This document shows positions 17,101 through 52,819 of a stretch of 64,000 nt of DNA, in pieces. The notes beneath the pieces were generated by a model. The model saw only the letters and a list, made by a program, of their open reading frames with translations. It searched no databases and was not told where the DNA came from. Within the stretch, counting starts at the first letter, position 1; each line of letters starts with the position of its first letter. This DNA is from Chiloscyllium plagiosum (Eukaryota), in NCBI RefSeq assembly GCF_004010195.1, contig NC_057759.1:7241593-7305592 (forward strand), read 5' to 3'. A program made the translations under genes and the position numbers.

Positions 17101-20100
17101 GAAATTGAAAGAGCAAACATATGTGGTGAATTCCACTTACCGACCACGTTCAAATACAGCTTGTCACTGAGCTCTGAATATCTCCGATGCCCAGAGACAG
17201 TCATCCCACACTCGCACATATAATATTCTGGCACAGCCGCCTGAATTTCGAAAATGGTGAAACTGTGATTTTGATCAGCAAAATGGCTGTGTGTTTTCTG
17301 CTCACCAGTATACAGGTAGAAACTGTAAGAGGACGATTGGAAATCTACACTGCAAGTCATGTTAACCAATTCGCCCCTGATGAATATGTTCTCGGAATGA
17401 TTCAGCGAGAGGCTCGGTTTCTGTGGTTTGTCTGCCAGAAATTGAAGGAAAAAATCAAATTGACGGCTAAAAATGACACTCGAGAAATCCAAAGCAGCCC
17501 CCTCTGAATTGGCACCACATCCACAAACATCAACTCCCACTACCTCCATTGATGCTCAGTAGCAACAGGGTGAACCATCTACAATATGCGGATCAGAAAG
17601 TCACCAAAGTTCCTCAAGGATGACTTTCCAATCGCACAACTGCTTCCATCTAGAAGGACAAAGGCCGCTGCTTCACTCCCTTTGACCCACTCACCATCCC
17701 CATTTGGGAAATATATCGGCGTCAGTGTCGCTGGATGAAACTCCTGGAATTCCTTTCCTGAGGGCATTGTGGATCTACCAACAGCACGTGGATTGCAGTG
17801 GTTAAAGAAAGCAGCTCACCACCACCTTCTCAAAGGGGCAACTGGGAATGGAGTGGGCCCAGACAGAGACGTCCACATCGCCCAAATGAATGAAGAAATA
17901 TAAAATATATTATGATAAAATACATCTTGCATAGACTGCGCCATCTTCAGATTCAATGATTGTGAAGCAAGTGAAACATTATCCTTTTGTGCATTAAAGA
18001 GTGCTATTTCACTTCCTAAACTGTGTAGAATCACATAAAGTTGTGCTTATGTTAGAGACAGGTGATAAGCAGATCCCTTCTGAAAAAAGGCATTGTGCAT
18101 TGTCCTCTGTACTTTATTGTTTGGATGTTCATGATTCAGTGTGTATCTACTAATTCCATCATTTGCTTAGCTCACTGAGGAATTCAATCACCGATTGTAA
18201 TCTCCACGTTTCACTGCAGAAATTCACCAATAAACCTCAGACAGCATCTTCCAAACTCATCAGCCCCTTCTATGTGGACCAAGAAGAGCAGCAGATGGGA
18301 CCACCACACTCTGCATGTTTCCCCTCTGAGCCACTCAACATCCCGACTTGGAAATATTTTGGCCCTTCCCTTCAGCATTGCTGGGTTCGAAATATTAGAA
18401 TTTCCTCTCTAACGGTATAGTTGGCCTAACTACAGAACATGGGATGCATCGGTTCACCACCACCACCTTCTGAAGTGGATAGCTGCAGATGGACAATAAA
18501 TGTTGAGCCCCACATCCCATGAGAAAATACAAAGAGAGAATTAAAGCTTGCATTGTTGGAATGAATGAAAAGTGCAAAATACACAGAAAATTAACAGGGG
18601 TTAACCATGAGTACTTACCAATAACTGTTACATAGACTGAGTAACTCTGCTCTGAGCTCAACAAGCTTTGCTCCAATGTAAGTTCGCAAGAGCAGGTAAA
18701 CATTTCGCGTGCGGTTATTGGAATTTCAAAAGTTGCCATGTGGTAATTGAAGTCACTTTGAACATTCGAGTTTGTCAGCTTTTGTCCGTTTCTGTGTAAG
18801 TAGAGTGAAGAGCACGAATACTTGGAGCTGAGGTAGCACTTGATTTTTGCATGATGTCCAAAGATGAATGTGCTGAGGCCACCATCCAACTCAATGGATG
18901 GGGTCACAGGACGATCTAAGACAGACAGAGAGAGAGAGAGAGAAAAGACATGGCGAGAGTAGAAAGAAAATAGAGAAATGTCGGAACACAATTTCAAAAA
19001 CAAAATAGCAGAGAACTGTGGAGGATGCTGGAGGTCGGAAACAAAAACAGAAATTACTGCAGAAAATCAAAAAGTCTGGCACGATCTGTAGGAAAAAATC
19101 AGAGTAATGTTTCGACTCCAATGACTGTTTCTACACTGCTGACAAGGAGTTTGGGGCCAGAGCAAATATGCAATATACAAACTTGAATGAGCACAGATTT
19201 AAGATCAATGGGGAAAGTATATGCATCGATAGATTCTGATTTTATTTGAAGAATAGAGGAAGTGCTAATTGTCTTGTACTAATTGTTCGAGTTGGCGATT
19301 GAAACTAAAGTAGTCGATGATTTCAAAAGGTGGAATGATGGACACTCAATTGAAATAAAAAAATGCAGTGATGTTGAGGGAGTTGAAATGAATGAATTGA
19401 TACCTGCGTTTAGGTGGTTCCTTTACTCTAAATGTGTTTTTACCACAGCCCCTGAATGCTTTCTTCCAATAAAGAGACTGTAGCTTAACCTAGGCCCAAC
19501 CAGGTGAGGGGAGAGTTTGAAAAGGAGGATCCTTCATAATAAGCTGAGCTGATATAGGAATTGAACCCTCTTTTGAGCGTCACCCTGCATTACAAACCAA
19601 CTGTCCGGCTAATAGACACGACCCCTTGGTTGCCCACTCCGCCAAGTAATTATTTCTATGATTATGTGGTCACAGGTAAAACTTACAATTCTCAAGCATC
19701 CTCACAGAACGTGGTTAAACTTTTCAAAATCCTGAGCTGTATGGGTAGGATTGCCATGATTAGAGCGGGTTTAATAAACAAAAACGAGAGGCCCTTTATT
19801 CGTGGTGACATGTGAAAGAAGCAAGGGCGTTCAAGTAGACAGAAAAGCTTGTTTTCTTACTTAGCAACTATTTTGCGTGTGCAACGTTCTACCTGGGGAG
19901 GCAGGTTCAATTGAGGCATTGGAGAGGGTACATCAGATGGTTACTTGGATAGAAATGGAGCTTGCAGAGATATGGAGAAAAGGCAAGAGATTGACACTAG
20001 AACATGGAGACAAACGAGATAATAGAACTGGGTTGGATAATAGAGCTAGAGTAGATTATAGAGCTGGGATGGATTATAGAGTTAAGCCAGATAATAGACC

Positions 20101-23100
20101 TGTAATAAATTATAGAGATGGGCTAGATAATAGAGTTGGACGAGGTAATAGGACTTTACTGGATAATTGGACTTAACTGCACGAGATAATAGAACTGGAC
20201 TAGATTTCACAGCACGACTGGCTAATGGAGCCAGATGAAACAATGGAGCTGGGCTATATTATAAAGGTAGCATAGATAATAGAACTGGGGTAGATTATAA
20301 ATATTGCCTCGACAATAGAACTGGGCAACATTAAGGAGCTTGCCTAGATAAAAAGCTAGAGTAGACAATACAGCTGGACTAGATAATAAAACAGGGCTAG
20401 ATAATCGAGCTGGAGTAGATAATTGAGTTGTGCCAGATAATATATATTCATGTAGCACAATGGCGTGGATGGTCTCTCTCTCTCTGCATCATAACAATTC
20501 TGTCATTGTCTGCAATAACATGTGGACGCAGCTTTCAAGGTCAGCCATAACTGATGAAAGGAAATATTTTTTAAAAAACATTTAAAAATATTTGAATATC
20601 TCTTTCTTGGCATCGCCTTTGCCCTTAAGACTGTCAACATGCAACCTTGTTGGATCATTCTCAGGTCAATTAGAGCATGAAATTTTATCTGTCAGTCGAT
20701 CGATCGATCTATCTATCTATCTATCGATCTATCTATCTATCTATCTATCTATCGATCTATCTATCTATCTATTTATCTATTAAGAAATACCATGCTTTCT
20801 TAACGTTATAAATTTCTAAACAGTTAGTGAAAAGATCTCAGTTTTGTTTGAACTGCAGAATTATTTTCGATCAACTTCACGAACATTAAAATTAACACCT
20901 TGTTTAGAATTTAAAGCCGAATGCTGCATGTGAAGCACACCCTGATAATATATCATTCAGACATATTTTGAATCTGTATCACTTTTAGTTGGTGTCTCAC
21001 TGAGTTATAGAGACACGGAGTCATTCCGCATGAAAATAGATCCTTCGGCCCAAATTCCATGCTGAGCAAGTTTCCTACACTGAACTCGTACCATTTGCCC
21101 ATGGGTGACTAATACTACTCTAAACATTTCCTATCTATGTATCGGTCCAAATGTCTTTTACATATCTTCCAATATCTTTTACATACAATTTATAACTACA
21201 TCCACCTCCACCATTTTCATCAGAAGCTTATTCCATACACGCACCACATTCTTCGTCCCTTGGGTCCCTTCTAATGTTTTCCCCTCTCCTTAAAAGTATG
21301 CATTCTTGCTTTGGACTCCCCCATCCCGGGAAAATATCTTGGTGATTCACGTTATCTCTGGCCCTTATGCTTATATAAACCTGTATAAGCTCGCCCCACA
21401 GCCTCCTACACAGCGGGAGAAAAAGTACCAGCCAACCAACCGCTCCGTCTAACTCCAAATTTCCAGTCTCCGGAACATCCTTGTAAATCTTTTCTGTACA
21501 ATTTGCAGTTTGTTAACATTTCTCCTATAGCAGGGTGATCAAATGCGAACTTATCCATGTCGTGTACAACTATAACATGAAGTCCCAACTCAATGTACTC
21601 AATGTTCTGACCGATGAAGGTAAGTGTGCCAAATGGCTCCTGCACCACCCTTTCCACCCGTAATACCACTTCCAATGAACTATGTGCCTTCAGCTCTGGG
21701 TTTCTTCTTTCGACAATGCACCCCAAGACGTCATCATCAATTGTGTAAGTCTTACCCTGATTGGTCTTAACAAAATGTAACATCTCACTTTCACCTGACT
21801 TGAACTCCATCTATCATTCCCCAGTACACACTGGCCCACTTGATCAAGATCCCGTTATAATCTTCTACACTGTCGAGCATATCACCAAATGTAGTGTCAT
21901 CCGCAAGACTACTAACCATGCCTCCCACAAAAGCATTTATTCTTTTTTGAAAAAGAAATTCTACCTCATACGAATGTTCCAAACACTTACCGATCACATT
22001 AAGATGCAATGGATCACTGCGTTGCAAAACTTCCTGTTCCCCAGCTCCTCTCAGATTGTACACACACGTATACGTTTCTGTCAGATTGGGGGCAATTTGA
22101 AAGGAAGCAGAACACAGTTTGCCAGCCGTCCGCGCTCTAGAAATAGCTTTTGCTTTGCTGCTTCTCAACAGAGAAACCCGAGAGTTTTCACAGCCGCTGT
22201 GAAACGTGCAGACAATTTTAACGTTTTCACCTCGAACGACAGCTTCCAACGAAGGTTTCATGGCAATATTCGGCTTCCTTTGACCTTCACGTCAACACAC
22301 ACACACATACATACACAGAGAAAAGTTGAATATTAGGACTCAATAAATATTCAAGAAAACGGTAGAGATCCTTTTTTTTTTACACATGTTGCGCATGCCA
22401 GTGCTGAAACTTGCTTCATAGTTTGGACGAATTGATATCCACACCCCAACAAACAAGCATGTTTCTCATAACATTAACCAAACTTTGCTTCTATTTGCAA
22501 GGATTCTGTGATGCAGTCGCTCTGTCGAGGTCAGGAAAAAACCTGGCTATAGATGCTACAACTGTGGCAGAAATACATATTCTCCCTCTGTGCAGAAAGT
22601 AGATAGGCCCTATTGGTTTAGCAAGAATGACTAGAAGGGTGGAAGACGTTTTGGGGGTGGGGGAATACACATTGATATTTTCTTTGAACTTCAGTTGCTA
22701 TTTTTGGAGTGGGTCGTGTATTCTAAACTTACTCTGATCACCTGAAATAAGAGAATTCATCATCACTTGGTCCAAAACTCCCTAAGGCATATGAAAACTG
22801 CAAACTTTCCGTAGGATTGTGTGTATGATCAACTCTTTGTTTAAAAGGAAAGAATTGATTCACAGGCTGAGAACATCAATTGCCTTTCTGTAATTTCCCC
22901 ATGTAATCATAAGGCATGGGAGCATAATTAGGCCATTCGGTCCATAAATTTTCTCTACCATTTGGTCATGACTGATATGTTTCTCAAACCCATTTTCCTG
23001 CCTTCTCCTGTAACCTTTTTTTAAGACCATACAAATGGTGAACACATATCTATCTCTACCCTAAATACCGTTAATATCGTGACCTCCACTGCCCTCTGCA

Positions 23101-25456
23101 GCAATGATTTCCGCAGAATCATCACCCTCTGGCTGAAAGAATTTCTACTCATCTCAGTTCTCAAGGTCCGTCCCTTCACTGTGCCCTCTGATCCTCGTCT
23201 CTCCAGCAAGTGGTAACGTCTTCTCGACGTCTACTCTGTCATTGCCTCTCAGTGTCTGACCCAGATGGGGCAGGCAACAGTCACCACATTGACTGTCGTC
23301 AGAAGTCATGTGTAGACCCAGTCGAGGTAAAGAGGACAGATGTCCTTCCATAAATGGTCTTAGCAAAGCAGGGATCAAACGACACGTTTCATCATCACAC
23401 TCTTAATGTTACTTTTGGTTTTCCATTCAAATTTCAACATCTGTCAAGTGGGATTCAAACCCAAATCCCCAGAACATTTTATTATTGTCTATGTTCATGG
23501 CAAACACTTTTTCTTGATTTCATTTGATGATTTCTCCTTGTTTTCACCATTTATTGTTCTGTATTTCCATCTCTGCTTGGCCAGCTTCTTAGGGGTTATC
23601 CTTAGGTTGGAGGGAATGTCTTATGAGCAAAACCTAAACAGATTGGGACTCGACTCTCAGGGGTTCCTAACGAGAGATTATCTCATTGAAACGTATAGGG
23701 GCTTGACAGGATCAATGCGGAGAAGATGCTCATCCCTCTGAACGAGTGTAGGGGCAGACAGCACAGTCTCAGAATAAAGAGAGGCCAACTGAAGATTGAG
23801 ATGAGGAGCATTTTTTTTTCTCCGAGGATTGTAAGACTTATTTAAGAATTATTTGACAAGTCAGAGATATGGAGGCAGAATCTTTTTATACATTTACGTC
23901 AGAGATAGATAGATTCTTCTTCAGTCAGCGAATCAAGGGTTAAATAGAAAGTTCAAGAACGTGAATTGAGGAATGTCAGATCAGCGACGATCCTATTGTT
24001 CCATGGAGCACACATGGAGGCAGAATCACCTACTCCATGTATTTATTTCTGACGATCTTATCTGAATGCATCTATAATAGTAACTTAACTTTCTTTCCAT
24101 AATAGTGGACTTTTAACTAATTGAATTGACAAGGGAAGGTGATTTGTTGACTGAACATTTACTGATGTATCAAGACTGAAAATAAAATGTTCAAACAGAA
24201 CGTAAAATATGTTACTCAGGTCCAAATTGTTTGCATTGTCCTGTCAGGGTACCAACAAGGTGAGATAGCTGTTTCACAACAGAGCCTAAAGTGGACTATT
24301 TGAAGTGACGGTCATTTCGCTTTGCATTCAAGCAGAGCTTAAATACCAATCAAATAAAAAATATTTTTAAACTTATTGTCATTTATGCTTTTTAACACTG
24401 CCTTCAATATTGCAATCACTGCCATTAATGTTGCAGCAAGACGTGTTTACTAACCTTTAGAAACAACGAGAGAAGCCATGGTTAGTAGTGCTAATGGAAA
24501 TAGAAAGGACGACAATGTTACTATATCAATGTCAATCACACGAAGGAACAAATAGAGGTAATAAACAAGTAACAGTTATTGCAGCTGTTTCTTCTCAACG
24601 GCCGTATTTAAAAACATGTAACTCTCAGACAAGCAAATCAAGCAATGATTAAAATTAAGGCTCACATTTGTGACGTTTAGAGATAAATTATGTTTCGAAT
24701 TTGAGTGCTCGCCAGGCGAGTAGTTTAGGTTTTTAATCTCCCTTTCTCTTCAAAGGTGCTTCCAGACCTATTGAGCTTCTCCACAACTTTCTGTGCTTAT
24801 AGTCTGTCACATTAACTGCTGTTTTTTGCTGTTCCCTCTCGCCACGAATCCTATTATATTTCTCCGGCAATTTCTGTCTTTATGATCTGTCACAGTAACT
24901 CTTTTACTTTCTCTCCCTCTCTCCACATGTCATAGAGTCACAGCGTAATCGAGAAGTACAGCACAGAAACAGACCTTTCGATCCAGCTCATCCATGCCCA
25001 CCAGATATCCCAACTCAATCTAGTCCCACCTGCCAGCACCTGGCACATATCCCTCCAAACCCATCCTATTCATTTACCCATCCAGATGCATTTTAAGTGC
25101 CCTGTCAGACATGCAGAATTTCTCCAGCACTTTTTGTGTTTATAACCTGTAATGTTAACTCTAGTTTCTCTCTCCCTCTCTCCACAAATGATGCCAGATT
25201 TGCGAAATTTCTCCAGCACTTTCTATGTTTATAACCTGTAACAAAAACTATGGTTATTTTTCTGATGCTCGCACAGACGCTGTCAGACCTGCTGAGTTTC
25301 TCCACCAATTCTCTGGGTTTGTTCCAGATTTCCAGCGTCTTACAGCATCTTGCTTTTATGCAAGGCTTTCCCTCTATTGCCACTGTGGGTACTATGTTAA
25401 GAAAAGGAGATATTGCATTACTTACAGAAGAAAATAATGCATGTATTCAAACCCAT
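2086..25456 (-). CDS. Multi-exon gene for a six-Ig-domain type I transmembrane receptor, LRC-type (LILR/PIR/CHIR-like); 3' end unresolved
   Basis: Exons 25456-25426, 24490-24455, 22284-21991, 18915-18619, 17431-17141, 17025-16729, 16202-15897, 14292-13996, 12065-11967 all have AG/GT boundaries and join in phase 1 into one 1948-nt open frame (leader, 6 Ig, TM). Candidate tail exons 9958-9940, 6718-6669, 2132-2086 extend it to 688 codons without a stop. Confidence 0.85.
2417..2709 (-). mobile_element. tRNA-derived SINE (HE1-like) inserted in a CR1 fragment spanning about 2370-3140
   Basis: A/B-box head (GGTAGCACAGTGG...GGTTCAATTCC), conserved core, (TCTAA)n tail; CR1 text resumes at 2712. Confidence 0.85.
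4050..4950 (+). mobile_element. Old degenerate CR1 3' fragment
   Basis: Remnants of HLEY, QRTFAGLIP, RTRSH.LK motifs. Confidence 0.7.
5790..6410 (-). mobile_element. Degenerate CR1 fragment
   Basis: ORF 6028..6348 MELNLSKCEAMH...VVKKAFG. Confidence 0.75.
6669..6718 (-). CDS. Candidate cytoplasmic exon, 50 nt (EGPVTLDQDTRMHTLD)
   Basis: ttgtcgctttcag|GGAAGG...CTCGACT|gtaagt; strong sites in non-repetitive sequence; open as phase 2 to 1. Confidence 0.55.
8944..9239 (-). mobile_element. Full-length young tRNA-derived SINE nested in a CR1 3' fragment
   Basis: Near-identical to 2417-2709; TGCAT on both flanks is a possible target-site duplication. Confidence 0.88.
9940..9958 (-). CDS. Candidate cytoplasmic micro-exon, 19 nt (VCGTKE-R)
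   Basis: ctgttcttttag|TTTGTGGAACAAAAGAAAG|gtatat; phase 1 to 2 fits the TM exon and the 6718 exon. Confidence 0.5.
10580..10918 (-). mobile_element. Older tRNA-derived SINE
   Basis: Core gcacatctttggattgtgggaggaaaccagagcacccgga and degenerate head. Confidence 0.75.
11967..12065 (-). CDS. Transmembrane exon (DGINMQLLFILGSALLLLLFIFILICTLIIIKG), no charged residue in the helix
   Basis: 99 nt, tctgtttcag acceptor, G|gtattt donor, phase 1-1; about 25 consecutive uncharged residues. Confidence 0.85.
12270..13290. mobile_element. Nested CR1 fragments (plus 12270-12705, minus 12710-13290)
   Basis: WPQLEHCVQF...VQRRFPRMLP; 13050-13240 resembles 720-905. Confidence 0.75.
13996..14292 (-). CDS. Ig domain D6 exon (DHILKPTCLL...GQNVTVNC...YSCRY...SDTCKLHHT)
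   Basis: 297 nt, ttttcctgctttag acceptor, gtgagt donor; overlaps ORF 13745..14221. Confidence 0.9.
14840..15760 (+). mobile_element. CR1 3' fragment
   Basis: YINDLEE, FADDTK, WQLEFNPDKC, PHLEYCIQF motifs. Confidence 0.85.
15897..16202 (-). CDS. Ig domain D5 exon (DRPAEPEISL...GELLLLTC...FYLY...YKCMY...SNPMILTIK)
   Basis: 306 nt, cctttcag acceptor, gtgggt donor; inside ORF 15883..16218. Confidence 0.9.
16729..17025 (-). CDS. Ig domain D4 exon (ERPKRPRI...GEPLSITC...FFLY...DPGEYWCAY...)
   Basis: 297 nt, tag acceptor, gtgagt donor; DxGxYxC motif; inside ORF 16676..17116. Confidence 0.92.
17141..17431 (-). CDS. Ig domain D3 exon (DKPQKPSLSL...GELVNMTC...FYLY...YMCEC...SELSDKLYLNVV)
   Basis: 291 nt, cag acceptor, gtaagt donor; inside ORF 17061..17549. 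Confidence 0.9.
18619..18915 (-). CDS. Ig domain D2 exon (DRPVTPSI...KIKC...FTCSC...SYSVYVTVI)
   Basis: 297 nt, polypyrimidine+tag acceptor, gtaagt donor; inside ORF 18395..19003. Confidence 0.9.
20017..20440. repeat. Degenerate 18-bp minisatellite (consensus about GATAATAGAGCTGGGCTA) in the D1-D2 intron
   Basis: Roughly two dozen units; visible as hexapeptide periodicity DNRxGL in ORF 19877..20176. Confidence 0.85.
20697..20780. repeat. (ATCT)n microsatellite
   Basis: Direct observation. Confidence 0.95.
21010..21920 (-). mobile_element. Degenerate CR1 fragment downstream of D1; counterparts at 36950-37410 (-), 35740-36650 (+), 63050-64000 (+)
   Basis: SSLADDTT / MEFKSGESEMLHF (ORFs 21406..21810, 36932..37300, 62977..63246). 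Confidence 0.8.
21991..22284 (-). CDS. Ig domain D1 exon (GQRKPNIAMKP...VKIVC...YTCVY...SDPLHLNVI)
   Basis: 294 nt, phase 1-1, donor gtaagt; B- and F-strand Cys, C-terminal SDPLxL motif; overlaps ORF 21791..22261. Confidence 0.9.
24455..24490 (-). CDS. Leader mini-exon S2, 36 nt (SLLTMASLVVSK-G)
   Basis: cctttctatttccattag|CACTACTAACCATGGCTTCTCTCGTTGTTTCTAAAG|gttagt; completes signal peptide MGLNTCIIFFSLLTMASLVVSKG. Confidence 0.8.
25426..25456 (-). CDS. Leader exon S1 (MGLNTCIIFF), 31 coding nt
   Basis: aaagATGGGTTTGAATACATGCATTATTTTCTTCT|gtaagt; consensus donor, phase 1, hydrophobic; homologous copies recur in the paralogous cassettes. Confidence 0.8.
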
Positions 25457-26842
25457 CTTTCGCAGAATATCTCGGCTGGATTTAAGGGACAGAAGAAAAA
25501 ACATGGATTACTATTTTTAATAAGAGCAGAAACTGCAGATGAGATTGGTGCATACACACATCTATCTGAATTGACAAGGGAGGGTGATCAGTGTAGTTAT
25601 GATTTGTTAGCTCGTGATGGATGATAGGTGGCTGGAAGTGAAACATTTAAAATTAAAATAGCACGGGACAGACAAAAGCTGTGGTAAAATTTCAAATTCT
25701 TCGCTTTGCCCTGTTGGGGGTGTAGAGACAGTACCAAGGTGATATCTTGAGTTTTTACGCTCAATGAACATTTCAATGTATGTACAAATATTACTGAGGT
25801 TGGTGTGGATCTCCCAGATTAGTAAATGATCAATTGCTTGAATAGTCGAGTTACTTATTATTTGTTAATTGTAATGACAAGAAGTGATTCAAAGCAACAG
25901 ATTTTTCGTTAAACAAGGACTCAGTGATTAATAATGCATAATATGCTTCATGAACCTTATAAGATGGGAGCCGCAGAAGATTATGTACACATAGACTCTG
26001 CTCAAAACAGTTCTGGCTACTCGACTAAGACATCAATATAGGAATAGGAGAAGTCTTTCAGCCCATTTAAGCAAATTAATTGGGTTGTAGCTGATTGTCT
26101 ACTTCAAAGCAATTTCCCACAATATCTGCATGCAATTGAATATTCCTTGGAGCTGTCCATTTCTATCTTGAATAGAATAATAGAGTTTCCATAGCCCATG
26201 AGGGTAGTGATTTCGAAAGGTGACAACACAGTTTTGGGGAACAGCTTCCTCCTGATCTTAGTCCTACATGACCCACCCGTTATTCAGTGATCCAACACCA
26301 AAGGTGTTGGGACAGGATCGAGGAAGGCGTGAAAGTAGGAAGGGAAGTAAAACAAAAAGAAGCGGTGTTTGGAACATGACTGAAAAGTTCTAACAGGAGG
26401 CCAGGATTGGGAAACACAAACAGAAATGAAAGGGATGTGATAGCATTGGGAAAGGGTGCACATGAAAATTTATCAGGGTATTGCCTTTGGGGCTGGAGAG
26501 TTTCAGTTATGGAGAGAAATTGGACAGACAGTGGTTGTTTACCTCACACCAGAGGAGAATAAGTGTTTGGTGGTGTGGGGGGAGGGGGTATGACTGCGGT
26601 GCATAACATGACGAGAAAGCATGGATAAGGTAGTTATAAAGAAACTTTCCCACTATGATGGAGGGATTAATGACGGGAGGGGGTGGGGGAAGTAGAATAG
26701 ATTGAAAGTAAAGGGCAGGAGATTTCGATTGGGATGCAACAAAAACACTTTTCACTTAGAGGGTGGTTATGAATGTGCAACTCTCTGTAAGGTTGGGAAA
26801 GGCAGAAACGCTGATCATATGGAGCAAATATGGAGCAAATGT

Positions 26843-27016
26843 GGGCAGCACGGTGGCACAGTGGTTAGCACTGCTGCCTCACAGCGCCAGAGACCTGGGT
26901 TCAATTCCCGCCTCAGGCGACCGACTGCATGGAGTTTGCACATTCTCCCCGTGTCTTCGTGGGTTTCCTCCGGGTGCTCCGGTTTCCTCCCACACTCCAA
27001 AAAAAATGTGCAGGTC
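26843..27016 (+). mobile_element. 3'-truncated tRNA-derived SINE, unit A only
   Basis: GGGCAGCACGGTGGCACAGTGGTTAGC...GGTTCAATTCCC head; absent at paralogous sites ~42635 and ~54115. Confidence 0.85.
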
Positions 27017-28859
27017 AATAGATTGAAAGTAAGGGGCAGGAGATTTCGATTGGGATGCGACAAAAACACTTTTCACTTCGAGGGTGGTTATGAATGTGCA
27101 AATCTCTGTAAGGCTGGGAAAGGCAGAAACGCTGATCATATGGAGCAAATATTTATGTGTACATCTGATACAAAGGCTATCACCATGTGCTTGGAAAATC
27201 AGATTTGAGAATAATGAGGTGGTTGTTTTTTGACTGACACGCACATAATGGGCTAATGGACCTCTTTTTATTATTCTGTAGATCTCAAGAACTCGACGGT
27301 TTCTGTTTCTAGTGTCACTGTGCGATCTGATCGATAACCAACTTATTATGATTCCAGCAGAACTTTAATACTTTGACCACGATCCCTATTCATGATTCTG
27401 GGAATTAGGACTTTGTCATATGCCTTTGGATCTGTACTGAATGTGTCATAGAAGGAGGGGATTTAGTGGGATCTGATGGTGATTCAAAGAATACTAAGAC
27501 AGAGTTTGCGGAGATGTTTCCACAAATAGGAGAGACTACAACCCGAGGACAGTCCTCGGGGTGAAGTGACAACTCACTTAAACCGAGAAAAGGAGGATTT
27601 TTTTTCAAACAAAGAGTCATGATTCTGTGGAACTCATTGCCGTGGAGGACAATTCACGGAGTGTCTTTAAGACAGAGAGAGGTTAGTAAGGGAATCAAGT
27701 GTTATGGCGAAATGACACACGAATGCAGTTGAGGAACACATCAGCTATGATTAGGTTTTGCTCCTTTATCTTATGATCTTAAATAACCACTTTTACAATC
27801 CTTTGCTGCTGCCAAACAGGATACAGCCAATAAAAGCTATCACTGGTATTCTGTAGGACGTCAGTCAAAATGCACACAACAATATTCCACAAACAAATGT
27901 TATAATGATTAGTACGCATTTCTTATAACAATGATTTAGCTACAAGGATTGATTTCAGTGAGACGTTCCTGCTCTCTCTGTATTCTTTTTTAAATTAAAG
28001 TGCAATTGTATATTTATTTTGCTTCTGTGGAAAGAGTTTCCCTGTGCTACCATCAACAGATTAAAACATCAGTAAAATGTTTCTGTTGCTTTCATCGAAA
28101 GCAAAAATCGCACTTAGCTATATTTCTGTATCTAAAAACATTAAACACTACATAACCTCTTAAACGCCGGACAAACTATTATCAAGTTGGGTGGATAGCC
28201 CTCACCTCTGGATTCTTGTCCTACATCTAAAAGCTGTACAGAGTGTAAAAAGTATTTGTGACACAAACTTAGCACATACCGGCTCGAATGTCTTGTTGAA
28301 GTCTTACTCTCAGTACCGTTCTGTTCCCTGCTTATGCTGCATATCTGCTCGATAAAAAACCAACATACAGTGAGCAGGAAATAATGGTTACATTGAGCTT
28401 TCGAAAATAGTCACCTACGTGACAGGCCAAACTGTGAACTCCATCCACAATTTAAGAACTAAGCAACGATTATCAGGTAACATTCTATTTCCATTGGGTA
28501 TCAGTAATTGTAGCTGTGAATATGTGAGCGTAGATCCATGTGTCCATCAATAAAGTCTGTGAGTGCATGAGAGAGAGAATGTACATGTGTGAGTGAATGA
28601 GAGTGCAGGTGTTTGCGTGTAAGACAATATATATATATGTGCACATATATGTCTGAGAAATTGAAGTTTGTATTTTCAGACTGATAGAATGTGTGTTGAA
28701 ACTGTATGCATATATACGTGCACGTGCGAATGAGTGAGTTTGTTTTCAGGCTGACAGAATGTGTGCCTGTGAGGGAAAATGTGTGCATGTATAGGAATGT
28801 AAGAATGAATAAGTGTGTGTTTGTTACAGAGCAAGTGTGTGTGCAAGAGAGAGCTAGAC

Positions 28860-28892
<33 letters not shown>

Positions 28893-31800
28893 TACTGAGT
28901 GCATATGTGTTTGCTGATAAGAGATGTAGAGTAAACGTTACAGATTACCAACAAAGACAGTGCTGGAGTAACTCTGCAGGTCTGGCAATATCTGTGGAGC
29001 GAGCGAGAGAGAAAAAAAGAGTTAAAGTTATCGGTTACAAACACAGAAAGTGGTGAAGAAACTGAACAGGCCTGGCACCATCTATGGAGACAGAATGAAG
29101 AAGAGTTAACGCGTTATGGGAATTTTGAATTGTTGTTGGACTTTACCATAAATTCTTAATGATTGATCCATCTCAGAATTCCAGAATGTTTAAGAAAAAT
29201 TTGAAGATTAAATCTCTCTCTCTCTCTCTCCACAGATGCTGCCAGCCTGCTGAGTATCTCCAGCACTACCTGTATCTCCAGGCTTGAAGGTTAACTCTGT
29301 GTCTCCTATCAACATTCTGTCTTTCTCTTTTGCACGGATGCAATTTCTCTCCAATGCACAAAAACTCATGCATACACGCACAGATGCAGATATTCTCTCT
29401 TACACAGACAGACACACACACACAGAAACTGTCATGCTCACAACGCACACTATATTCCCTGACATATTGATTTACACACATACACTCACTCACACAGACT
29501 TTTTTTAATACACGCACATGCACATAGACAGACAGACCCCCCCACACACATACACACACATACACACAGAGACACATACACACTTGTGTGTCATTTTGAA
29601 AACGCGCATCACACTCTCTAACACATTCATTCACACACATGCACTCACTCACGCAGACTCTTTTTAATAGATACACAGACACATACACACCGCCCACATA
29701 TAAAGCCAAAATGATTGCTTCATTTGCTGATGCCTAATCCGATATGTCTGAAGACGGAATTTTGCCTGATAACCGCTGTTGCGTTCTGAAACTGTGCCTG
29801 AAGCTCTGTTTGAGATGTCACGTCGGTGACTATTTTTGATAGCTCACTGTGAACTGTTGCTTCCTGCTCACCGAGTTTTGGTTATATTTATTTTTCACTT
29901 GTGTAGAGATCCTACTAGTGTAGTGCACAGAACGTACTAAACAGAAAGATTCAAAGTACAATACATTCAAGCAAGTAAATGCTGAAATGTTGTCCAAATT
30001 CGTTTTGCAATCTGTACAGTTCTTAGTTATAGGAATCACTTTCCAGAGGTGAAGCCAGTCTAACTTGATGACATTTTATCAGTAGGATAACATTTATATT
30101 CCCATTTACTATTTTTTACACACAGAAATATAACGATGTGCAAATTTCGTTTTGGATAACTGAATCAGAAATATTGAACTGACCCATTAATCAGTTGACA
30201 GTGACACAGGGATGAAAAATAAATATCCAATGTCTCATTAAAATAAAACAGGAAGAGAGCAGGGAACATCTTTATAATATCAATAGTTGTGGCTTACTCA
30301 ATCAAAAAAAAGTTTGTTCAATCATTTATTTGTGGAATGATTTTGTGTGCATTTTGACGACTGACTTTCTTATATTTCATTAGATGTAACCTGTTTGACA
30401 GCAGCAGAATCTTGCAAAAAGGCATTTTTTAAAGACCACAAGATATAGGAGGAAAACTCAATCATCTCTGAAAAGTTTCTCAAACACATTCTCCCTTCAT
30501 TCTCACGATCACGAATAGGATATCGTTCAAACTTTTAAAAGCATCTTACGTTCAGAATAGGACGGATACTGATAAGATTCGATGGTGGCTCTAGACAGGA
30601 AAAATGGTGTCATGGAGACCTACAACACTGGAAGAAGTCCATTCAGCCCAAGAAGTACGTGCTAGTGAAAACCACCGATCTCACTATTCTGGAATCCCAT
30701 TTTCCCAGCACTTGGCCCATAGCCTTGGCATTACAAATGCATATCTAAATATTTCAGTATGATGAGGGTTTCTGCTTCTTCCAGCCTTACATGTAGAGAA
30801 TCCTAGGTTCCTCACCACTCTCTGAAGCTCCTACCACTTATGTTCAGTCTCTGTTTTCCCCAGCCCATTGTTCATCCCTCCATCAAGAGGGAAAAGTTTC
30901 TTCCTGTCTACTGCGTCTATGCTCCTCATTGTTTTATCAAACCCTTTCAATCTCCCGTGGTATAACAGAAGTGGCCCCATTCTGTCCAATCTCTCTCCTT
31001 TCCTGAATCTGACCTACGCCCAGGGTAACATCGTGGTAAATCTCCCACTGCACACTCTCCCAGTGCTATCACATCCTGCTTCTTCGACGTTTTTTTTTCT
31101 CCTCGCCCCTGCGCTCCTCTCAAAACTTCCCTGTCATGATTCAAACAATCAATCAATTCTGTTTTACTCGCGTTCCCACTTTGCCACTATCCCAACACAT
31201 TTGCTGTTGAATTTCACAAAAAGCGATAAGTCATTTAAGATTGAATGCAAGATGGCACTGTTCCCGAAGAGAATGTTGAGATATTTGGAAATTGCTATTC
31301 TTGAGGGTTATAGAAACGCAATTCTTGAGCATGATCAAGGAAGAAAGGGACAACTCAAAAGGTCATTCATAGCTATGGAGATACTATGGGAAATTGTCTT
31401 TGAGGTAGACTATGACCTATGACAATTGATTCACTTGAATGGGTCGAATAGCCGTATCATATTTTGATATTCAAATGTTCTACAAACAGCCACAAGGATA
31501 TACATCAGAGCTTATGAGTGGATTACGTTCTTTTGCTCCCAGGCCATATTCTCTGCACAGCAGATCAAGTGCCAGTAATTTCTGCCTTACAGTTTTCCCA
31601 TAGATTTTCCACTGTGAATTATTTCGTATTGATAATAACATTGAAAACAATGCTAAATAATTCATCTATTCAGTTAATTGATAATTTTCAAATCTAGAAA
31701 TTCACACTATTATCAATAATATTTGAACATACATAAAAACTTTAATCGAACGTAAAAATGAAATCAAGACAACCCCTCGACGTTTTCTCTGCCCTGTCCG

Positions 31801-32059
31801 ACCACCTCCAAAAACAAGGGATTTGAATTTTGTAACACTTTTGTCTGTCCCATGTTGTGTTAAGTTTAAACGTTACACGTTTAGTCCCCAATGATCCATC
31901 AGTATCTAATCAGTCATAAGTACACTCATCACATTCCTTTGTCGATTCAGTTTTGTGTGTACATTCATCGCCTCTGTAGATTCTACTCTTATTTTAAATA
32001 TTAATTTATTTCTCTTTTCCCGTCTATGCCCTATTTCCAGCAGTGATATTCTCTTAATG

Positions 32060-35000
32060 ATGTACTTAATTACGTACTTTATTTTATTTTGTAAGTAGTG
32101 TCATGTCTCCTTTTCATCAAAGTGCGAATTAAGTATCACAATTGTAAAGGAGGGTAAATGTTGCATAAAAACAAGACACTGTCGGACACAGGAACTTTGA
32201 AAAGAAAACACGAAGATTTGCTGAAGAAACTCAACATGTCTGGCAGCATCTGTGGAATGAGAGAGTGAAACAGAGATAACATCACAGGTATAAACCCAGA
32301 GTGCTGGAGATACTCAGCAGGTCTGGGAAAATCTGTCTGGAGAGAAAGTGAAAAAACCGAGTTAAGGTTTTCGGTTAAATACACAGATGGTGTTGGACAG
32401 TCTCAGCATGTCCGGCAATAACTATGTGAGGAGAGAGAGCAAACATTTCTTTTTATTCCACTTAATTTATTATTGCCACATGTGCTGAGATTCAGTGAAT
32501 TGAATTGTTTTGGTGATCAGACAAATCATAGCTTACATTTGTACATCAGGGTAATAGACCAGAATGCAGAACAGAGAGTTATGTCTGATATCAGTAACCT
32601 TTCTTCAGACCCATAACACCTCGTGTTATGAACAATGAAATTGATAATATAATTTATGTGAAAAATCAAAAAGGATGTGCCTTTACTTTAATTATTGCTT
32701 GTTTTGTGTTTCTGAGCATTAAAGGTTGTCAAATAACCTTTTTTTAGAAAATAAGTCAAATGCCAAGAAACAGTTGCAATGAGTGTTGCTGGAATAACGG
32801 CATTTATTTGTTCCTTGGTGTGATTGAAATGAATAAAACTGCCATTGTACATTTTTTCTATTTATTTCCACTTCACGTATAATGACTTCTCTCGCTATTT
32901 CTTCAGGCTAGTAAAGTTATTTTTATGCGAAAATCATGGCAGTAAATGGAAATTCGAAATCAGTACAACGAAGCATAAATGACAACCAGAATATGGATAA
33001 TTTCATTGGAATACAAGATCTTCTTACGTAGACACTGGGAAGAACGTCACAGCAAGACAATACAATTCAGAGTCCGTTATAAAGTAGGCAATTTGCTACA
33101 TTGCCTTGTTGGTACAGTAATGGCATAATGCAAAGACTTTGAAGCATTGGAACATCTTTTACCTGTCCACTGCTGCGATAGGTTTTAACATTATGCTTTT
33201 AGTCCTGTATGATGCACCACGACCTATTCAATCAAAGATTCATCAGGGTCAAAACAACACTCATCACCTTCCCTTGTCAATTCAAGAAGCTGCAGATCCA
33301 CCCTTACAGAGAGGAGATTAAGTGAATATTAGACAGCATTCAGACAAGATACTCAGACAAGGGGTGGCACAGTGGCTGAGTGGTTAGCACTGCTGTCTCA
33401 CAGCGCCAGGGATTTGTATTAATTCCAATCTCTGGTGACGGTTTGCTTGGGGTTTGGACATTCTCCTTGTGCCTGAGTGGGTTTCCTCCCACAATCCAAA
33501 GATGTGCAGTTTTTATGAATTATACATGCTAATTTGCCCACAGAATCCAGGGATGTGTGCTTTGGATGCATTAGTCAGGGGTAAATGTAGGGGAATGGGA
33601 CTGGATGGGTTACTCTTTGGAATGTTGGTGTAGATCATTTGGGCCAAATTGTCTGTTTCCACACTTTAGGGAATTCTATGATAATCTGAAATTGAAACAG
33701 GATTAGGCCATTTGGCTTCTCAAACCTGCTCTGCATTCCATAGAATCGCAGTAGATCCAATATTCCTCACGTGTGTTTTCTTGCTCTATTCCCCTTAACC
33801 CTTGATTCAGCTCTCTATGGCAAGTACTTCCAAAGATGCACAGTCGTCTGAGACAAAAGAATCCCACGTCAACTTAATTGTCATCCCTTCATTCTGAGTC
33901 TGAGCCTCCTGTTTCTAGACTCTCCCGTGAGGTTTAAATATCATTTCCGAATTGACCCTGTCAAAATCCTGTATGTTTCAATTGGATCACATTTGATTCT
34001 TTTAAACTGCAATGAGTAGAGTCTGAACTGTTTAACTTGTAAGACAAAAGTACAATTGGAAATATGCGATTATAAACTGGGAAAAATAGCTTAGAAATAA
34101 TAAAAATAAATCAAGAGGTCTCAATATTTATACCAACGCTATGAACCCAGAGATTCAGATAATGTTCTGATGACCTGGGTATGAATACCACCCTGGCAGA
34201 TAGTGGAATTTGAATGCAAAAAAAATGTTATCCGTTATTAAAACATTTATGACAATGGCAAACTGTATTGATTATTCACTGTAGGTACGGAAATCTGCCC
34301 TCCTTATCTAGTCTGGTCCTACAGATGTCTCCAGACTCACATTTTATCTGGCTGACTCTTCATTTCTCCTCTGGGACTGGATACTGAAAGCTCTGAATAG
34401 GGTCGCTGTAGAGCAGATGTTTCCACTAATAGGAAAGACTACAATCTGGGCACGTGGTTTCATAGTGAAGGGACAACTGAGATGAGAAGGAATTTCTTCA
34501 GCCAGGTAACGGTGAACTGGTAAAACACATTGCAGAGAGCTGTGGCAGCCATGCCACTGAGTATATTTAAGGCAGACATAGATAAAGGAATTAGGTAGAA
34601 AAGACAGATTGGCAAGTAAATCAAAGTTTACAGGGAGAAGGCAGAAAATGAGTTTGAGGAACATACCAGCCATGGTCAAATGGTAGAGCGATGTCCCAAA
34701 TGGTCGATTTCTGCTTTTATATCCTATGGTCTCATGGGAAATTAATGGTGGACAAGTGATGTTTATTAGGTAAAAACAATGACTGCAGATGCTGGAAACC
34801 AGATGCTGGATAAGTGGTGCTGGAAGAGCACAGCAGTTCAGGCAGCGACCGAGGAGCAGTAAGATCGACCTTTCGGGCAACAGTCCTTTATTACCTATGA
34901 AAGAATAATACACACAATCCAATTATAGTTTTGTGGTTCTCAAAATGTTAGAGAGCTGTGCATCAAATCCTCTGATCTCCAATATTTGTGAACGTCTTAA

Positions 35001-35706
35001 GGATGTACGACCCATCCCAAAATTAGCAAATTAAGATAAAAGAAAACATTTATATATCTCCATCCAACTCCGCCGCCACCCCCGCTCGCTAACTCTCCCC
35101 CTCCCCCCAAGGATCTAATCGTTTCTGGAACATAACACAACAGATCTAACTCCTGTTCACAGAGCTAAGACACTTTCCTGGCGATTTTGTGGGATCTGAA
35201 ACCCAGGGTTCTCCTGGCTTAGAAATGGGGACTGCATCACTGGAACCTTGAAGACTTTTGTTCTGTACCGTCTCTCCAAAAAACTTGTTGATCGCAAATA
35301 TACAACGTGCATGCGCTTGTGAGAAAGAACGCCTGTGCGTGAGAGAGAGATAGAGACACAGAGAGAGACAGGGGGAGAGAGGGTGGGAGGAGAGAGAGAT
35401 GCGTGCTAACATGAAGGTCAAAGGAAGTTGAAAATCACGCTGAGGCGGTCGTTAGAATCTGTCGTGCGAGGTGAAACTTATCATTCTCTGCACATTTCAC
35501 AGCATCTCTGAATATTTGTGGGTTTCTCTATTTCGAAGCAGCGAACTGGAGGCTATTTCTGGAGGGCAGATGAGCGGCAAATTGTGTTTCACTTCCTTTG
35601 CAGTTGCAGGCAGTGTGAGAGACATACACATTTGGATGCAATCTGAACGAAGCTGGGAAGCTGGAAGCTTTGCAACTCAGTGATCTATTGCATTTTAGCA
35701 TAATAA
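32060..35706 (+). pseudogene. Inverted 5' cassette, unit A plus strand: S1 32060-32090 (MYLITYFILF, intact donor), degenerate S2 ~32871-32906, frameshifted D1 35417-~35706
   Basis: Homologous by eye to S1/S2/D1 of the intact gene; S2 lacks acceptor AG; D1 (GQRKLKITLRRSLESVVRGE.../IILCTFHS...GKLCFTSF) is frameshifted with no donor; no D2-D6 follows. Confidence 0.8.
33361..33680 (+). mobile_element. Older SINE shared by all three units (also 47445-47760, 60806-61125)
   Basis: Same head, core and flanks in A, B and C, so it predates the triplication. Confidence 0.8.
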
Positions 35707-37477
35707 ATAGACATATGGTATATTTGTGTCAGGCAGAATATGTTAACAACGTGCTGTGAGAGAGCTATAGAGGATCCATGATTAGAAGATTTGCAAACAA
35801 CAGCAAGGTAAGTGGTATAATAAGCAGCTTAGAAGATTGTCACAGAGGTCAAAGGGAACGTAAACAACTGGTGCAGTTGGCCATGAAATAGCAGCTGTAG
35901 TTAAATTTAGATAACTGCGAGGCGTTGCACTTTGGTAAGACAATGTACGGCAAGACCTACGCAATTAAGTTTCGGGCCCTCGGGCGTGCAGTCGAACACA
36001 GACACTTCGGTTTGCTGGAACATAATTCATTGACGTGGCGTCACAGGTAGAAAGAGCGGTGACGGAAGCATTGGGCATGCTTGCCTTTTTCAGTCAGAGC
36101 ATTGAGAAATTCACTTAGGACTTCATGTCAAAGTTGAACAAGACTGCAATAGGACCACATTTGCAGGACTGCATACAATCTGGTCACCCTGTTATTGAAC
36201 TGGAAAAGATGCAAAAAGGAATTACGATGATGTTACAGAGATAGAAGTTTTTGAGTTATAAGGAAAAGCTGGATAGGTTGGGACTTTATTTCATTGGAGT
36301 GTATAAGACATTGTGTCGAACTCATAGAAGTTTATAAAATCATGAGAGGCACGCATAACGTGAATATCCAAGGTACATTTCTCTGCGAAGGGAAGCCCAA
36401 ACGTAGAAAGCACAAACACAAGTTAAGAGAGGAGAGATTTAACATGGAACGAGTTGAGAGGAAGTGGTCAACGTGGATACAATTACAACATCGCAAATAC
36501 ATTTGGACAGGAACATGGAAATGAAAGTTTTGGAAGGATTTGGGCCAAAAACAGGCAAACGCAGCTGCTTTAGTTTGGGAAACCGGGTCAACATGTAAGA
36601 GTTGGGTTGAAATTTCCTGTTTCCATGTTGTATGACTCTAAGACTCTATTGGGCAATAATGGGCAACTGTAACAACATGGAGAACCTTCCCCTAATTGTT
36701 TAGAAATGACCAAAAATCAGAAGGCATTTTAGATCTTTTATTGATAGATAGAAAGAATTGCATGTTTCAATTTACTTGAAAATAATGCAATCAAACGTAC
36801 ACGTTGACACTCTTAAGGATAGATGTGATGTTAAGCAACAGGGATTTCACAATTCCCTGACTTTTCAAGAATATAATTCCTGCCATCGATTCTGGCTGAT
36901 CTCTCTGGTGTTACTTTAGAAAATCACATAATTATTCTGGTGCAGAAAGAGGCCAGTCTCTGCAACACCCTTGTAAATCTTTTCTGCACAATTTGCAGTT
37001 TATTAACATTTCTCCTATAGCAGGGTGACCAAATTCGAACTTATCCATGCCGTGTACAGCTGTAACGTGAAGCCCCAACTCAATGTACTCAATGTTTTGA
37101 CCGATGAAGTTCAGTGTGCCAAACGGCTTCTTTACCACCCTTTCTACTTGTAATACCACTTCCAATGAACTATGCAACTTCACCTGTACGTTTCTCGTGT
37201 CGACAATACTCCCAACAACGTCATCATCAATTGCGTAAGTCTTGCCCTGGTTGGTCTTAACAAAATGCAACATCTCACTTTCACCTGACTTGAACTCCAT
37301 CTATCATTCCCCAGTCCACTGGCCCACTTGATCAAGATCCCGTTATAATCTTCTGCACTGTCGAGTATATCACCAACTGTCGTGTCATCCGCAAGGCTAC
37401 TAACCATGCCTCCTACAAAAGCATTTTTTTATTTTAAAAATGTCATTCTACCTCATACGAATGTTGCAAACACTTAC

Positions 37478-37948
37478 CGATCACGTTAAGATGCAGTGGA
37501 TCACTGTGTTGCATAACTTCCCCAGCTCCTCTCAGATTGTATACAGACGTGTACATTTCGGTTACACTGGGGCCAATTTCAAAGGGAGCAGAACACAGTT
37601 TGCCAGTCGTCCGCGCTCCAGAAATAGCCTTTGCTTTGCTGCTTCTAAACAGAGAAACCCAAGAGTTTTCACATCTGCGGTGAAATGTGCAGAGAATTTT
37701 AATATTTTCAACTCAAGTGACAGCTTCCAATGAAAGTCTCATGACAATATTCGGCTTCCTTTGACCTTCACGTCAACACACACACACACACACACAATAG
37801 CCTTTGCTTTGCTGCTTCTAAACAGAGAAACCCAAGAGTTTTCACATCTGCGGTGAAATGTGCAGAGAATTTTAATATTTTCAACTCAAGTGACAGCTTC
37901 CAATGAAAGTCTCATGACAATATTCGGCTTCCTTTGACCTTCACGTCA

Positions 37949-37979
<31 letters not shown>

Positions 37980-40900: not shown

Positions 40901-41249
40901 GTTCCCTGTCGGACATGCAGACTTTCTCCAACACTTTCTGTGTTTATAACCTGCAGTGTTAACTCTAGTTTCTCTCTCCCTGTCTCCATAGATGCTGCCA
41001 GACTTCCTGAATTTCTCCAGCACTTTCTGTGTATATAAGGTATGACACAAACTGGATGTCTCTTTCTGTTGCTCGCACAGACGCTGTCAGGTCTGCTGAA
41101 TTTCTCTGTGCTTGTTTCAGGTTTCCAGCGCATCACAACATCCTGCCTTTATGCAAGGCTTTCCCTCTTTTATTACCGTGAGCACTATGTTGAGAAAAGG
41201 AGATATTGCATTACTTACAGAAGAAAATAATATATGTTTTCAAACCCAT
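37478..41249 (-). pseudogene. 5' cassette, unit B minus strand: intact S1 41249-41219 (MGLKTYIIFF), intact 36-nt S2 40289-40254, D1 37765-37478 with nonsense codon
   Basis: D1 has CGA>TGA at 37715-37713 and F-strand Cys>Ser (YTSVY); splice sites retained; followed by CR1 remnant rather than D2. Confidence 0.88.
38030..38300 (+). mobile_element. Probable Penelope-like 3' remnant
   Basis: cacctgatgaaggaacagtgctccaaagct...aataaacc terminal motif; family assignment from recall only. Confidence 0.45.

Positions 41250-44198: not shown

Positions 44199-44199
<1 letters not shown>

Positions 44200-44272
<73 letters not shown>
44200..44272. repeat. (TG)n microsatellite, expanded in unit B only
   Basis: Paralogous sites at ~28690 and ~55683 have only 3-5 units. 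Confidence 0.95.
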
Positions 44273-44273
<1 letters not shown>

Positions 44274-46155: not shown

Positions 46156-46655
46156 NNNNNNNNNNNNNNNNNNNNNNNNNNNNNNNNNNNNNNNNNNNNN
46201 NNNNNNNNNNNNNNNNNNNNNNNNNNNNNNNNNNNNNNNNNNNNNNNNNNNNNNNNNNNNNNNNNNNNNNNNNNNNNNNNNNNNNNNNNNNNNNNNNNNN
46301 NNNNNNNNNNNNNNNNNNNNNNNNNNNNNNNNNNNNNNNNNNNNNNNNNNNNNNNNNNNNNNNNNNNNNNNNNNNNNNNNNNNNNNNNNNNNNNNNNNNN
46401 NNNNNNNNNNNNNNNNNNNNNNNNNNNNNNNNNNNNNNNNNNNNNNNNNNNNNNNNNNNNNNNNNNNNNNNNNNNNNNNNNNNNNNNNNNNNNNNNNNNN
46501 NNNNNNNNNNNNNNNNNNNNNNNNNNNNNNNNNNNNNNNNNNNNNNNNNNNNNNNNNNNNNNNNNNNNNNNNNNNNNNNNNNNNNNNNNNNNNNNNNNNN
46601 NNNNNNNNNNNNNNNNNNNNNNNNNNNNNNNNNNNNNNNNNNNNNNNNNNNNNNN
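46156..46655. other. Assembly gap (500 N)
   Basis: Run of N. Confidence 1.
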
Positions 46656-46818
46656 CTTGTTTTGTGTTTCTGAGCATTAAAGGTTGTCAAATAACTTTTT
46701 ATAGAAAAGAAGTTATAACAGTTGCAATGAGAGTTGCTGGAATTATGACATTTATTTGTTCCCTAGTGTGATTGATGTGGATAAAACTACCATTGTACAT
46801 TTTTTCTATTTATTTCCA

Positions 46819-49300: not shown

Positions 49301-49301
49301 T

Positions 49302-52500: not shown

Positions 52501-52698
52501 CTTTCAGTTGCTCGCACAGACGCTGTCAGACCTGCTGAGTTTCTCCAACAATTCTCTGTGTTTGTTTCAGATTTCCGGAGTCTCAAAACATCCTGCTTTT
52601 ATGCAAGGCTTTCCCTCTTTTATTACCGTGGGCACTATGTTGAGAAAAGGAGATATTGCATTACTTACAGAAGAAAATAATGTATGTATTCCAACTAT
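49547..52698 (-). pseudogene. 5' cassette, unit C minus strand: S1 without ATG (52698-52669), 35-nt frameshifted S2 (51822-51788), truncated D1 (49619-~49547)
   Basis: ATG>ATA; S2 one base short; D1 has TGA at 49569-49567 and ends at the Penelope fragment. Confidence 0.85.
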
Positions 52699-52819
52699 CC
52701 TTCGCAGAATATCTCGGCTGGATTTAAGGGATAGAAGAGAAAAAAATGAATTACAGTTTTTATTAAGAGCAGAATCTGCAGAGGAGGTTGGTGAAAAGCC
52801 AATAATTTGAAATTTTACG

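Follow-up and report, generated by a model that had tools for sequence, protein, structure and literature searches.

A probable fossil of inverted duplication: a 68%-identical mirror of the 5′ end of an Ig-like receptor gene in the carpet shark Chiloscyllium plagiosum

The 64,000 nucleotides of Chiloscyllium plagiosum analysed here (contig NC_057759.1, positions 7,241,593 to 7,305,592 of the forward strand; hereafter the window) hold an intact minus-strand gene for an immunoglobulin (Ig)-like receptor, LOC122544686. The 5′ end of this gene and the DNA upstream of it recur head to head as a strongly diverged reverse complement, and the whole arrangement is repeated in three tandem units (A, B and C; Table 1). 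The palindrome is real: in unit A, positions 20478-29014 are colinear with the reverse complement of 29213-36951 over 6,988 aligned columns at 68% identity. This colinear mirror survives repeat masking, and we consider it likely to be the fossil of an inverted segmental duplication that arose in one step, decayed and was later amplified in tandem.

Self-comparison of the window gave inverted matches of 64-73% identity, in colinear order, between 21.3-28.5 kb and 29.8-36.4 kb, and when 20200-29110 was aligned globally to the reverse complement of 29111-36950, identity was 67.9% over 7,050 columns (score 133,455) with monotonic partner coordinates. All five controls (the forward sequence, the sequence reversed only and three unrelated flank stretches) scored 111-314 over 19 columns or fewer. 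Masking was applied to the repeats detected in the window and to TG/CA tracts, covering 36% of the left arm and 29% of the right; this mask was built in the window and not from a RepeatMasker library. It left 4,311 of the 6,988 core columns at 67.9% identity, compared with 68.1% for the columns inside the mask, and blastn of the hard-masked arms returned ten inverted matches, all on one anti-diagonal, and no direct matches. The initial annotation of this DNA had proposed the palindrome and had staked it on inverted matches that would persist and stay colinear after masking, as they do; the four strings that it quoted are found exactly at 28404, 29816, 25665 and 31838, and the pairs of positions that it gave for the two leader exons (S1, 25456/32060; S2, 24490/32871) and the first Ig exon (D1, 22284/35417) agree with the exon edges determined here.

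Repeat content of the arms was also judged from depth in the whole-genome contigs of sequencing run X1, a test that works at 90% likeness and misses very old repeat families. The mirror-partner bins 25721-26387/31057-31723 and 27722-28388/29723-30389 had summed depths of 18-33, against up to 1.5 million in bins containing what we take to be a short interspersed element (SINE), and these low-depth partners align at 65.8% and 71.8%, respectively. Both the left and the right arm are covered by contigs of the DNA runs X1, X5 and X17. That transposons inserted in opposite orientations by coincidence, or a flaw of assembly, made the mirror is hardly credible. About a third of each arm is indeed repeat-like, and unit B contains a 500-N gap and a perfect 173-bp tandem copy, but the DNA outside the mask aligns as well as that inside it, is colinear and includes exons; copies that differ by 11-32% cannot be assembler duplicates, and three further DNA runs contain both arms. 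Transposon coincidence was rejected on the colinear survival of the mirror under the mask and the lack of direct matches between the masked arms.

The inner ends of the arms lie at 29014/29213 in unit A, 44577/45308 in unit B and 56017/56732 in unit C, bearing out the three X-shaped centres anticipated at 29.1, 44.9 and 56.4 kb; additional centres, arranged tail to tail, are present near 36.8 and 49.4 kb. At the outer side, the D1-D2 intron contains a remnant of a long interspersed element (LINE), which we take to be of CR1 type (two related fragments in the flank match Pfam RVT_1). As had been noticed at the outset, this element recurs in the mirror, and it was already in place before the inversion. 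Beyond it the arms still align for 211 columns at 67.8% (score 7,213, the best of 30 shuffles being 1,694), and the palindrome of unit A reaches from 20478 to 36951, about 16.5 kb; the ~15 kb (21460..36650) first assigned to it was too short. A degenerate 18/36-bp minisatellite occupies 20017-20442 of the same intron. Unit B begins abruptly within the CR1-like remnant (36953 corresponds to 21463), and therefore the right arm of unit A was cut by the tandem duplication. Unit C is still matching its mirror where it leaves the window (21010-21323 with 64000-63701), and therefore the true outer end of the mirror, together with any second gene body, is located beyond base 64000.

The arms are separated by a spacer that is 89% identical between units B and C over 688 columns; the self-inverted score of this 0.72-kb sequence was below the best shuffle, so that the spacer is non-palindromic. 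The 6.6 kb between the leaders had been read as intergenic DNA shared by a divergently transcribed receptor pair. The head-to-head copies of the 5′ end stand, but the shared interval does not: it is made up of two mirrored upstream regions (~3.6 and ~2.9 kb) around the spacer of ~0.72 kb (0.2 kb in A), so that duplicated upstream regions take the place of one shared promoter, and in place of two intact genes there is a second copy with S2′ and D1′ (primes denote mirror exons) broken in all units where they are present. The spacers also show a weak D1-like match at 56229-56472 and 44779-45018 (plus strand), starting at the splice acceptor position; among 36 comparisons, the score of spacer C exceeded those of all 200 shuffles (z 8.1) and that of spacer B those of 199. 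The mirror D1 copies, one nucleotide hidden Markov model (HMM) and two protein HMMs all failed to reproduce this match, which is an unconfirmed candidate and possibly the relic of an older paralogue.

The right arm is a dead pseudogene. S1′ retains its ATG, length and donor in units A and C and the acceptor of D1′ is invariant across four copies; S2′ has lost its acceptor, D1′ carries two frameshifts, and D1′ of unit B is truncated. No D2-D6, transmembrane (TM) or tail exon of the family was found on the plus strand within the window. The frameshifts and the splice lesion are common to the units, and therefore the mirror died before the 15.5-kb triplication. Kimura two-parameter (K2P) distances were 0.43 (pairwise) or 0.52 (four-way) from arm to arm and 0.12-0.13 from unit to unit, so that divergence between arms is 3.4-4 times that between units; with the lesions common to the right arms, this upholds the earlier suggestion that the inversion preceded the tandem amplification. 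Left arms and right arms formed separate clades in all three segments, and in a 13-row tree, with none dropped, D1′ grouped with Chiloscyllium D1 (support 98/99), apart from three Heterodontus D1.

There has been no arm-to-arm conversion since the triplication: across 5,351 columns, 1,289 informative sites had the arm pattern, 19 the unit pattern and 14 the pattern used as a homoplasy control, and the longest identical run between the arms is 22 bp. A palindrome maintained by conversion was rejected on these counts and on the 68% identity. That the palindrome is functional now, whether maintained by conversion or acting as a cruciform, a bidirectional promoter or a source of antisense or decoy RNA regulating the receptor, is very improbable. 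Both arms have been retained in contigs labelled as a second species and the S1′ donor is intact, but besides the missing conversion signal the upstream DNA of the mirror has diverged about as far as the introns (69.6% vs 66-68%) and unit A has lost most of its spacer. Arms of 68% identity around a spacer would be unlikely to fold or recombine. In the ~2% of the single-cell RNA run X21 that was read, 1,832 of 1,851 aligned reads were only partial fits, on repeats, and carry no information on expression.

The second-species contigs (run X17) on both arms and the gene body differ at 385 of 6,362 bases in the eight pieces listed, a difference of ~6% that is biased low by the exclusion of pieces below 90% and that equals half the unit-to-unit distance. 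The order of events was thus inversion, mirror death, triplication and species split, with inversion, triplication and split standing at about 7-8 : 2 : 1. The split between two Chiloscyllium species has been placed at 20.9 million years ago (Ma; PMC7677710) and that of carpet sharks from other sharks at 181 Ma (PMC11406177). If the X17 distance corresponds to the 20.9 Ma split, the triplication would date, roughly, to ~41 Ma and the inversion to ~140-170 Ma, which would fall within the 181 Ma carpet-shark split.

The anatomy of the arms and the succession of events can be read from the alignments; the molecular route of the first step would be as follows. In a carpet-shark ancestor, a segment of an inhibitory FcRL/LRC-like gene, running at least from the upstream DNA through S1, S2 and D1 to a point 1.5 kb into the following intron, would have been copied in reverse beside itself. 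The unique ~0.72-kb spacer was left between the copies, and fold-back or replication template switching would most likely have achieved this in a single step. As the arms themselves record, the mirror then lost the S2 acceptor and acquired its two frameshifts while the arms drifted to 68% without gene conversion. The central 15.5 kb was next triplicated in tandem, presumably by unequal exchange, which cut the mirror arm of A and disconnected the B and C left arms from the gene body; deletions and insertions of local extent followed. A single event is favoured because divergence is uniform by region along the arm (K2P 0.35-0.46), and a one-step fold-back because the 0.72-kb spacer of B and C is non-palindromic. 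In human fold-back inverted duplications all 21 sequenced junctions contained a spacer, of 766-70,466 bp (PMC3907307), and template switching at replication forks gives similar junctions (PMC10766183). A route in two steps, with head-to-tail tandem duplication of the gene and its upstream DNA followed by local inversion of one copy near the junction, would produce the same mirror in a family that duplicates readily (three Heterodontus paralogues; adjacent LOC numbers in Pristis). It requires, however, an inversion breakpoint within ~0.7 kb of the duplication junction, whereas a short unique spacer is what a one-step fold-back predicts (PMC3907307), and we think it unlikely.

Several observations nevertheless weigh against a one-step fossil duplication. 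Tandem duplication followed by inversion yields an identical picture; the centre is bridged by none of the listed contig pieces, which are the longest pieces only; and the outer boundary of the mirror lies outside the window. A short dispersed repeat is present at both spacer edges (85% over 54 bp), but the edge copy matches its mirror partner at 85% and a flank copy at 87%, so that a fold-back seed is not proven, and the arms are too diverged for junction microhomology to be legible. In addition, D1 and D1′ are 72.8% identical where the flanking introns are 66% identical, and the ratio of nonsynonymous to synonymous divergence (dN/dS) between them is 0.52 in A and 0.67 in C, both with wide intervals, while D1′ of A-right compared with that of C-right gives 0.42; non-coding windows were as low in 4/102, 26/102 and 11/114 cases, respectively.

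These last values bear on the idea that a whole gene was duplicated and that two divergent receptors, possibly an inhibitory/activating pair, worked for a time, the second body now lying to the right of base 64000. This idea, which is compatible with one-step inverted duplication as to origin, we regard as possible but doubtful. It would fit a mirror that is ended by the tandem junction and not by an end of its own and that is still matching at the window edge in unit C, the retained ATG, length and donor of S1′ and invariant D1′ acceptor, and the identity and dN/dS (0.52-0.67) of D1′. However, constraint on the intact copy alone would give dN/dS of at least 0.5 (the non-coding null has its median at 0.81 and its 5% tail at 0.53), and therefore the D1′ data neither show nor exclude a working phase; the signal of constraint on D1′ is weak. 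None of the 25 best-scoring of 167 proteins was closer to D1′ than to D1, the 46-aa D1′ fragment used as a query, in a weak search, matched nothing, and no second C. plagiosum member appeared in the searches for relatives. Improbable, too, is the full combination in which the mirror is a fold-back duplicate ~140-170 million years old with a readable junction and was once a working receptor, perhaps an activating partner, whose body lies to the right of the window or is intact in other carpet sharks.

Table 1. Features of the receptor gene, its mirror and the tandem units (positions within the 64-kb window)
Feature	Position	Strand	Basis or remark
Leader exon S1, 31 nt, LOC122544686	25426..25456	-	exon edges
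Leader mini-exon S2, 36 nt, AG..GT	24455..24490	-	exon edges
Ig exon D1, intact	21991..22284	-	exon edges; identity to LOC122544686
Ig exon D2	18915-18619	-	outside mirror
Ig exon D3	17431-17141	-	outside mirror
Ig exon D4	17025-16729	-	outside mirror
Ig exon D5	16202-15897	-	outside mirror
Ig exon D6	14292-13996	-	outside mirror
TM exon	12065-11967	-	outside mirror; gene body D2-TM is 11967..18915
Tail exons of intact gene	near 6720-6670 and 2157-2083	-	
CR1-like LINE remnant, intron D1-D2	21010..21950	-	mirrored at ~35760-36650
Left arm, unit A	20478..29014		alignment; 5′ part of intact gene and ~3.6 kb upstream
Right (mirror) arm, unit A	29213..36951		alignment; 68% identical to left arm, ended by A/B tandem junction
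Spacer, unit A	29015..29212		~0.5 kb shorter than in B and C through a deletion at ~29117
Spacer, unit B	44578-45307		
Full-length ancestral spacer, unit C, ~0.72 kb	56018..56731		89% identical to spacer B, not self-complementary
Mirror S1′, 31 nt	32060..32090	+	ATG and GT donor kept
Mirror S2′, 36 nt	32871..32906	+	right arms of A, B and C have all lost the AG acceptor; donor is GC in A and C
Mirror D1′ pseudo-exon	35417..35706	+	two 2-bp deletions common to A and C right arms; donor lost in A
Tandem unit A, 15,490 bp	21463..36952		direct repeats
Tandem unit B	36953..49290		broken D1 (starts 37765, stop codon); truncated D1′ from 49268
500-N gap, unit B	46156-46655		
Tandem unit C	49549..64000		truncated D1, S1 without ATG, S2 with 1-bp loss; right arm leaves window
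Mirror S1′, unit C	59548-59578		
Mirror D1′, unit C	from 62725		

The intact gene has nine minus-strand exons in the window (S1, S2, six Ig exons and TM) with AG/GT edges and a spliced reading frame without a stop, and its D1 is 100% identical to that of C. plagiosum LOC122544686 (717 aa), whose last exon, bearing an immunoreceptor tyrosine-based inhibitory motif (ITIM), was not found within the window. The LOC122544686 protein has six Ig domains, a TM segment without a charged residue and a terminal S-x-Y-x-x-V motif of ITIM type, and the same C-terminal motif is present in a Mustelus relative; from these sequence features the host gene probably acts like an inhibitory receptor of FcRL/LRC type. 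In genes of the LRC the second leader exon usually has 36 nt. The 31/36 nt measured in the host gene do not follow the 30/21-nt leader rule of FCRL genes, which itself holds in only a fraction of Xenopus XFL genes (PMC2413239).

C. punctatum and Stegostoma have relatives of the gene, as does Heterodontus, with three proteins recorded on contigs all of 27,249,576 bp, and Pristis has two adjacent LOC numbers of the family. A profile search gave 1,349 matches at E<=0.001; the 20 looked up among the 150 listed came from sharks, rays, frogs, a turtle and teleosts, under source names that included FcRL5, IGSF1-like, A1BG-like and DMBT1-like, and some relatives are, going by source name, SRCR-Ig mosaics. 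Sequence matches of the host protein in the structure bank were FCRL5, CEA, PIR-B, FceRIa and KIR3DL1, with FCRL5 best by phmmer (1.9e-16) and CEA, FCRL5 and PIR-B close together by profile. The AlphaFold model (pLDDT 73.5, pTM 0.40) gave fold matches with TM-scores of 0.12-0.36, usable for ranking alone, with PIR-B as the predicted best match at a low TM-score. In 2014, FcRL and LRC homologues were reported to be absent from sharks (PMC4016189). The present receptor is no first sighting; the Mustelus relative is already named Fc receptor-like 5 in databases. An Rfam search of all 64 kb gave no matches.

Direct repeats of ~80-92% in the window self-comparison define the three tandem units. Evidence for unit B consists of local matches, since its gap and a replaced segment limit whole-arm global alignment to 52 columns, and the order in which A, B and C were duplicated has low support, the closest pair differing from segment to segment. 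In the left arms of B and C, D1 is broken or truncated, and full-length receptor is made today by the leftmost copy alone. Unit B also has an intact-looking S1 (41249-41219) and S2 (40289-40254) on the minus strand, upstream of the functional gene and on the same strand as it, which could give the intact D1 an alternative promoter and, by splicing, an alternative leader. Between 28069-28485 and 43580-43992 (A/B) K2P is 0.063, compared with 0.11-0.14 elsewhere, which suggests exchange between tandem units.

Other rearrangements are scattered over the units. In unit B, 1.8 kb (38022-39810) stand in place of part of the S2-D1 intron, without homology elsewhere in the window except for a common short repeat, and a 173-bp tandem copy at 100% identity lies at a CA tract (37623-37969); this copy and the 500-N gap are possible assembly flaws. 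At the B/C junction there is a 258-bp insert (49291-49548), presumably Penelope-like, and ~2.3 kb are missing, both ends of the deletion lying near the D1 and D1′ exon starts, almost symmetrically about the tail-to-tail axis. In A-left only, a 136-bp direct duplication (96%; 26696-27152) surrounds the 5′ fragment of a presumed SINE; it is far longer than a usual target-site duplication, and a similar 105-bp duplication is found at 47276-47510. Upstream of the unit C leader, 52791-53007 form a young palindrome with arms of ~106 bp (94% over 97 columns) and a 5-nt loop, in which the inverted copy stands in place of ~55 bp of ancestral sequence, as in a local template switch; it is suggestive of such events recurring at the locus.

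The palindrome is an ordinary inverted gene duplication, preserved as a fossil of unusual legibility, and not a new kind of element. It shows that an inverted duplicate whose spacer is shorter than a kilobase can reach fixation and then decay in the absence of conversion, and that in slow shark genomes such fossils stay readable at identities well under the usual thresholds for segmental duplications. The locus provides a relative clock with three layers (inversion, triplication and speciation) and, for other carpet sharks, a prediction that can be tested. The host receptor family, with a six-domain ITIM receptor and relatives across sharks and rays, may matter more than the palindrome. If the mirror once worked, the locus would document how a paired FcRL/LRC-type receptor system arose and was lost in sharks, from which such receptors were reported absent (PMC4016189, as cited above).

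No description of this locus was found in the literature on palindromes, fold-back duplication or shark FcRL/LRC genes, as judged by titles and the beginnings of abstracts with few subscription journals covered, and later descriptions may exist. Its parts have parallels. The host gene resembles FCRL, Xenopus XFL, LRC (LILR/PIR/KIR/IGSF1/A1BG) and teleost LITR genes in its split leader, one-domain Ig exons, uncharged TM and C-terminal ITIM, but its second leader exon has 36 nt and that of FCRL1-6 and FcgRI 21 nt (PMC2413239). Like the palindrome, human Y palindromes P1-P8 and mouse SD12A1 have two arms around a unique spacer, and SD12A1 (~93%) likewise shows no sign of arm-to-arm conversion (PMC13688818). 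The Y arms, however, are kept above 99.9% by conversion and carry working gene pairs, whereas identity between the shark arms is 68%, well under the 90% from which the segmental-duplication track used in that study starts (PMC13688818), and one of the two arms is dead. In the human LILR region an inhibitory Ig-like receptor locus was likewise duplicated in reverse and tandem duplications followed, but there the clusters span ~150-210 kb, both of them hold working genes and further genes lie in between (PMC8562567), while the shark copies abut across 0.7 kb with one surviving gene in the window. Closest to the favoured origin are human germline fold-back duplications (PMC3907307), with an adjacent inverted copy and a short single-copy spacer (0.72 kb here), and template switching in yeast by origin-dependent inverted-repeat amplification (ODIRA; PMC10766183), with an inverted copy beside its source and a short non-duplicated spacer. 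Those cases are new and megabase-scale, mostly with terminal deletion or selected amplification, whereas the shark locus is interstitial, fixed, ancient and re-amplified.

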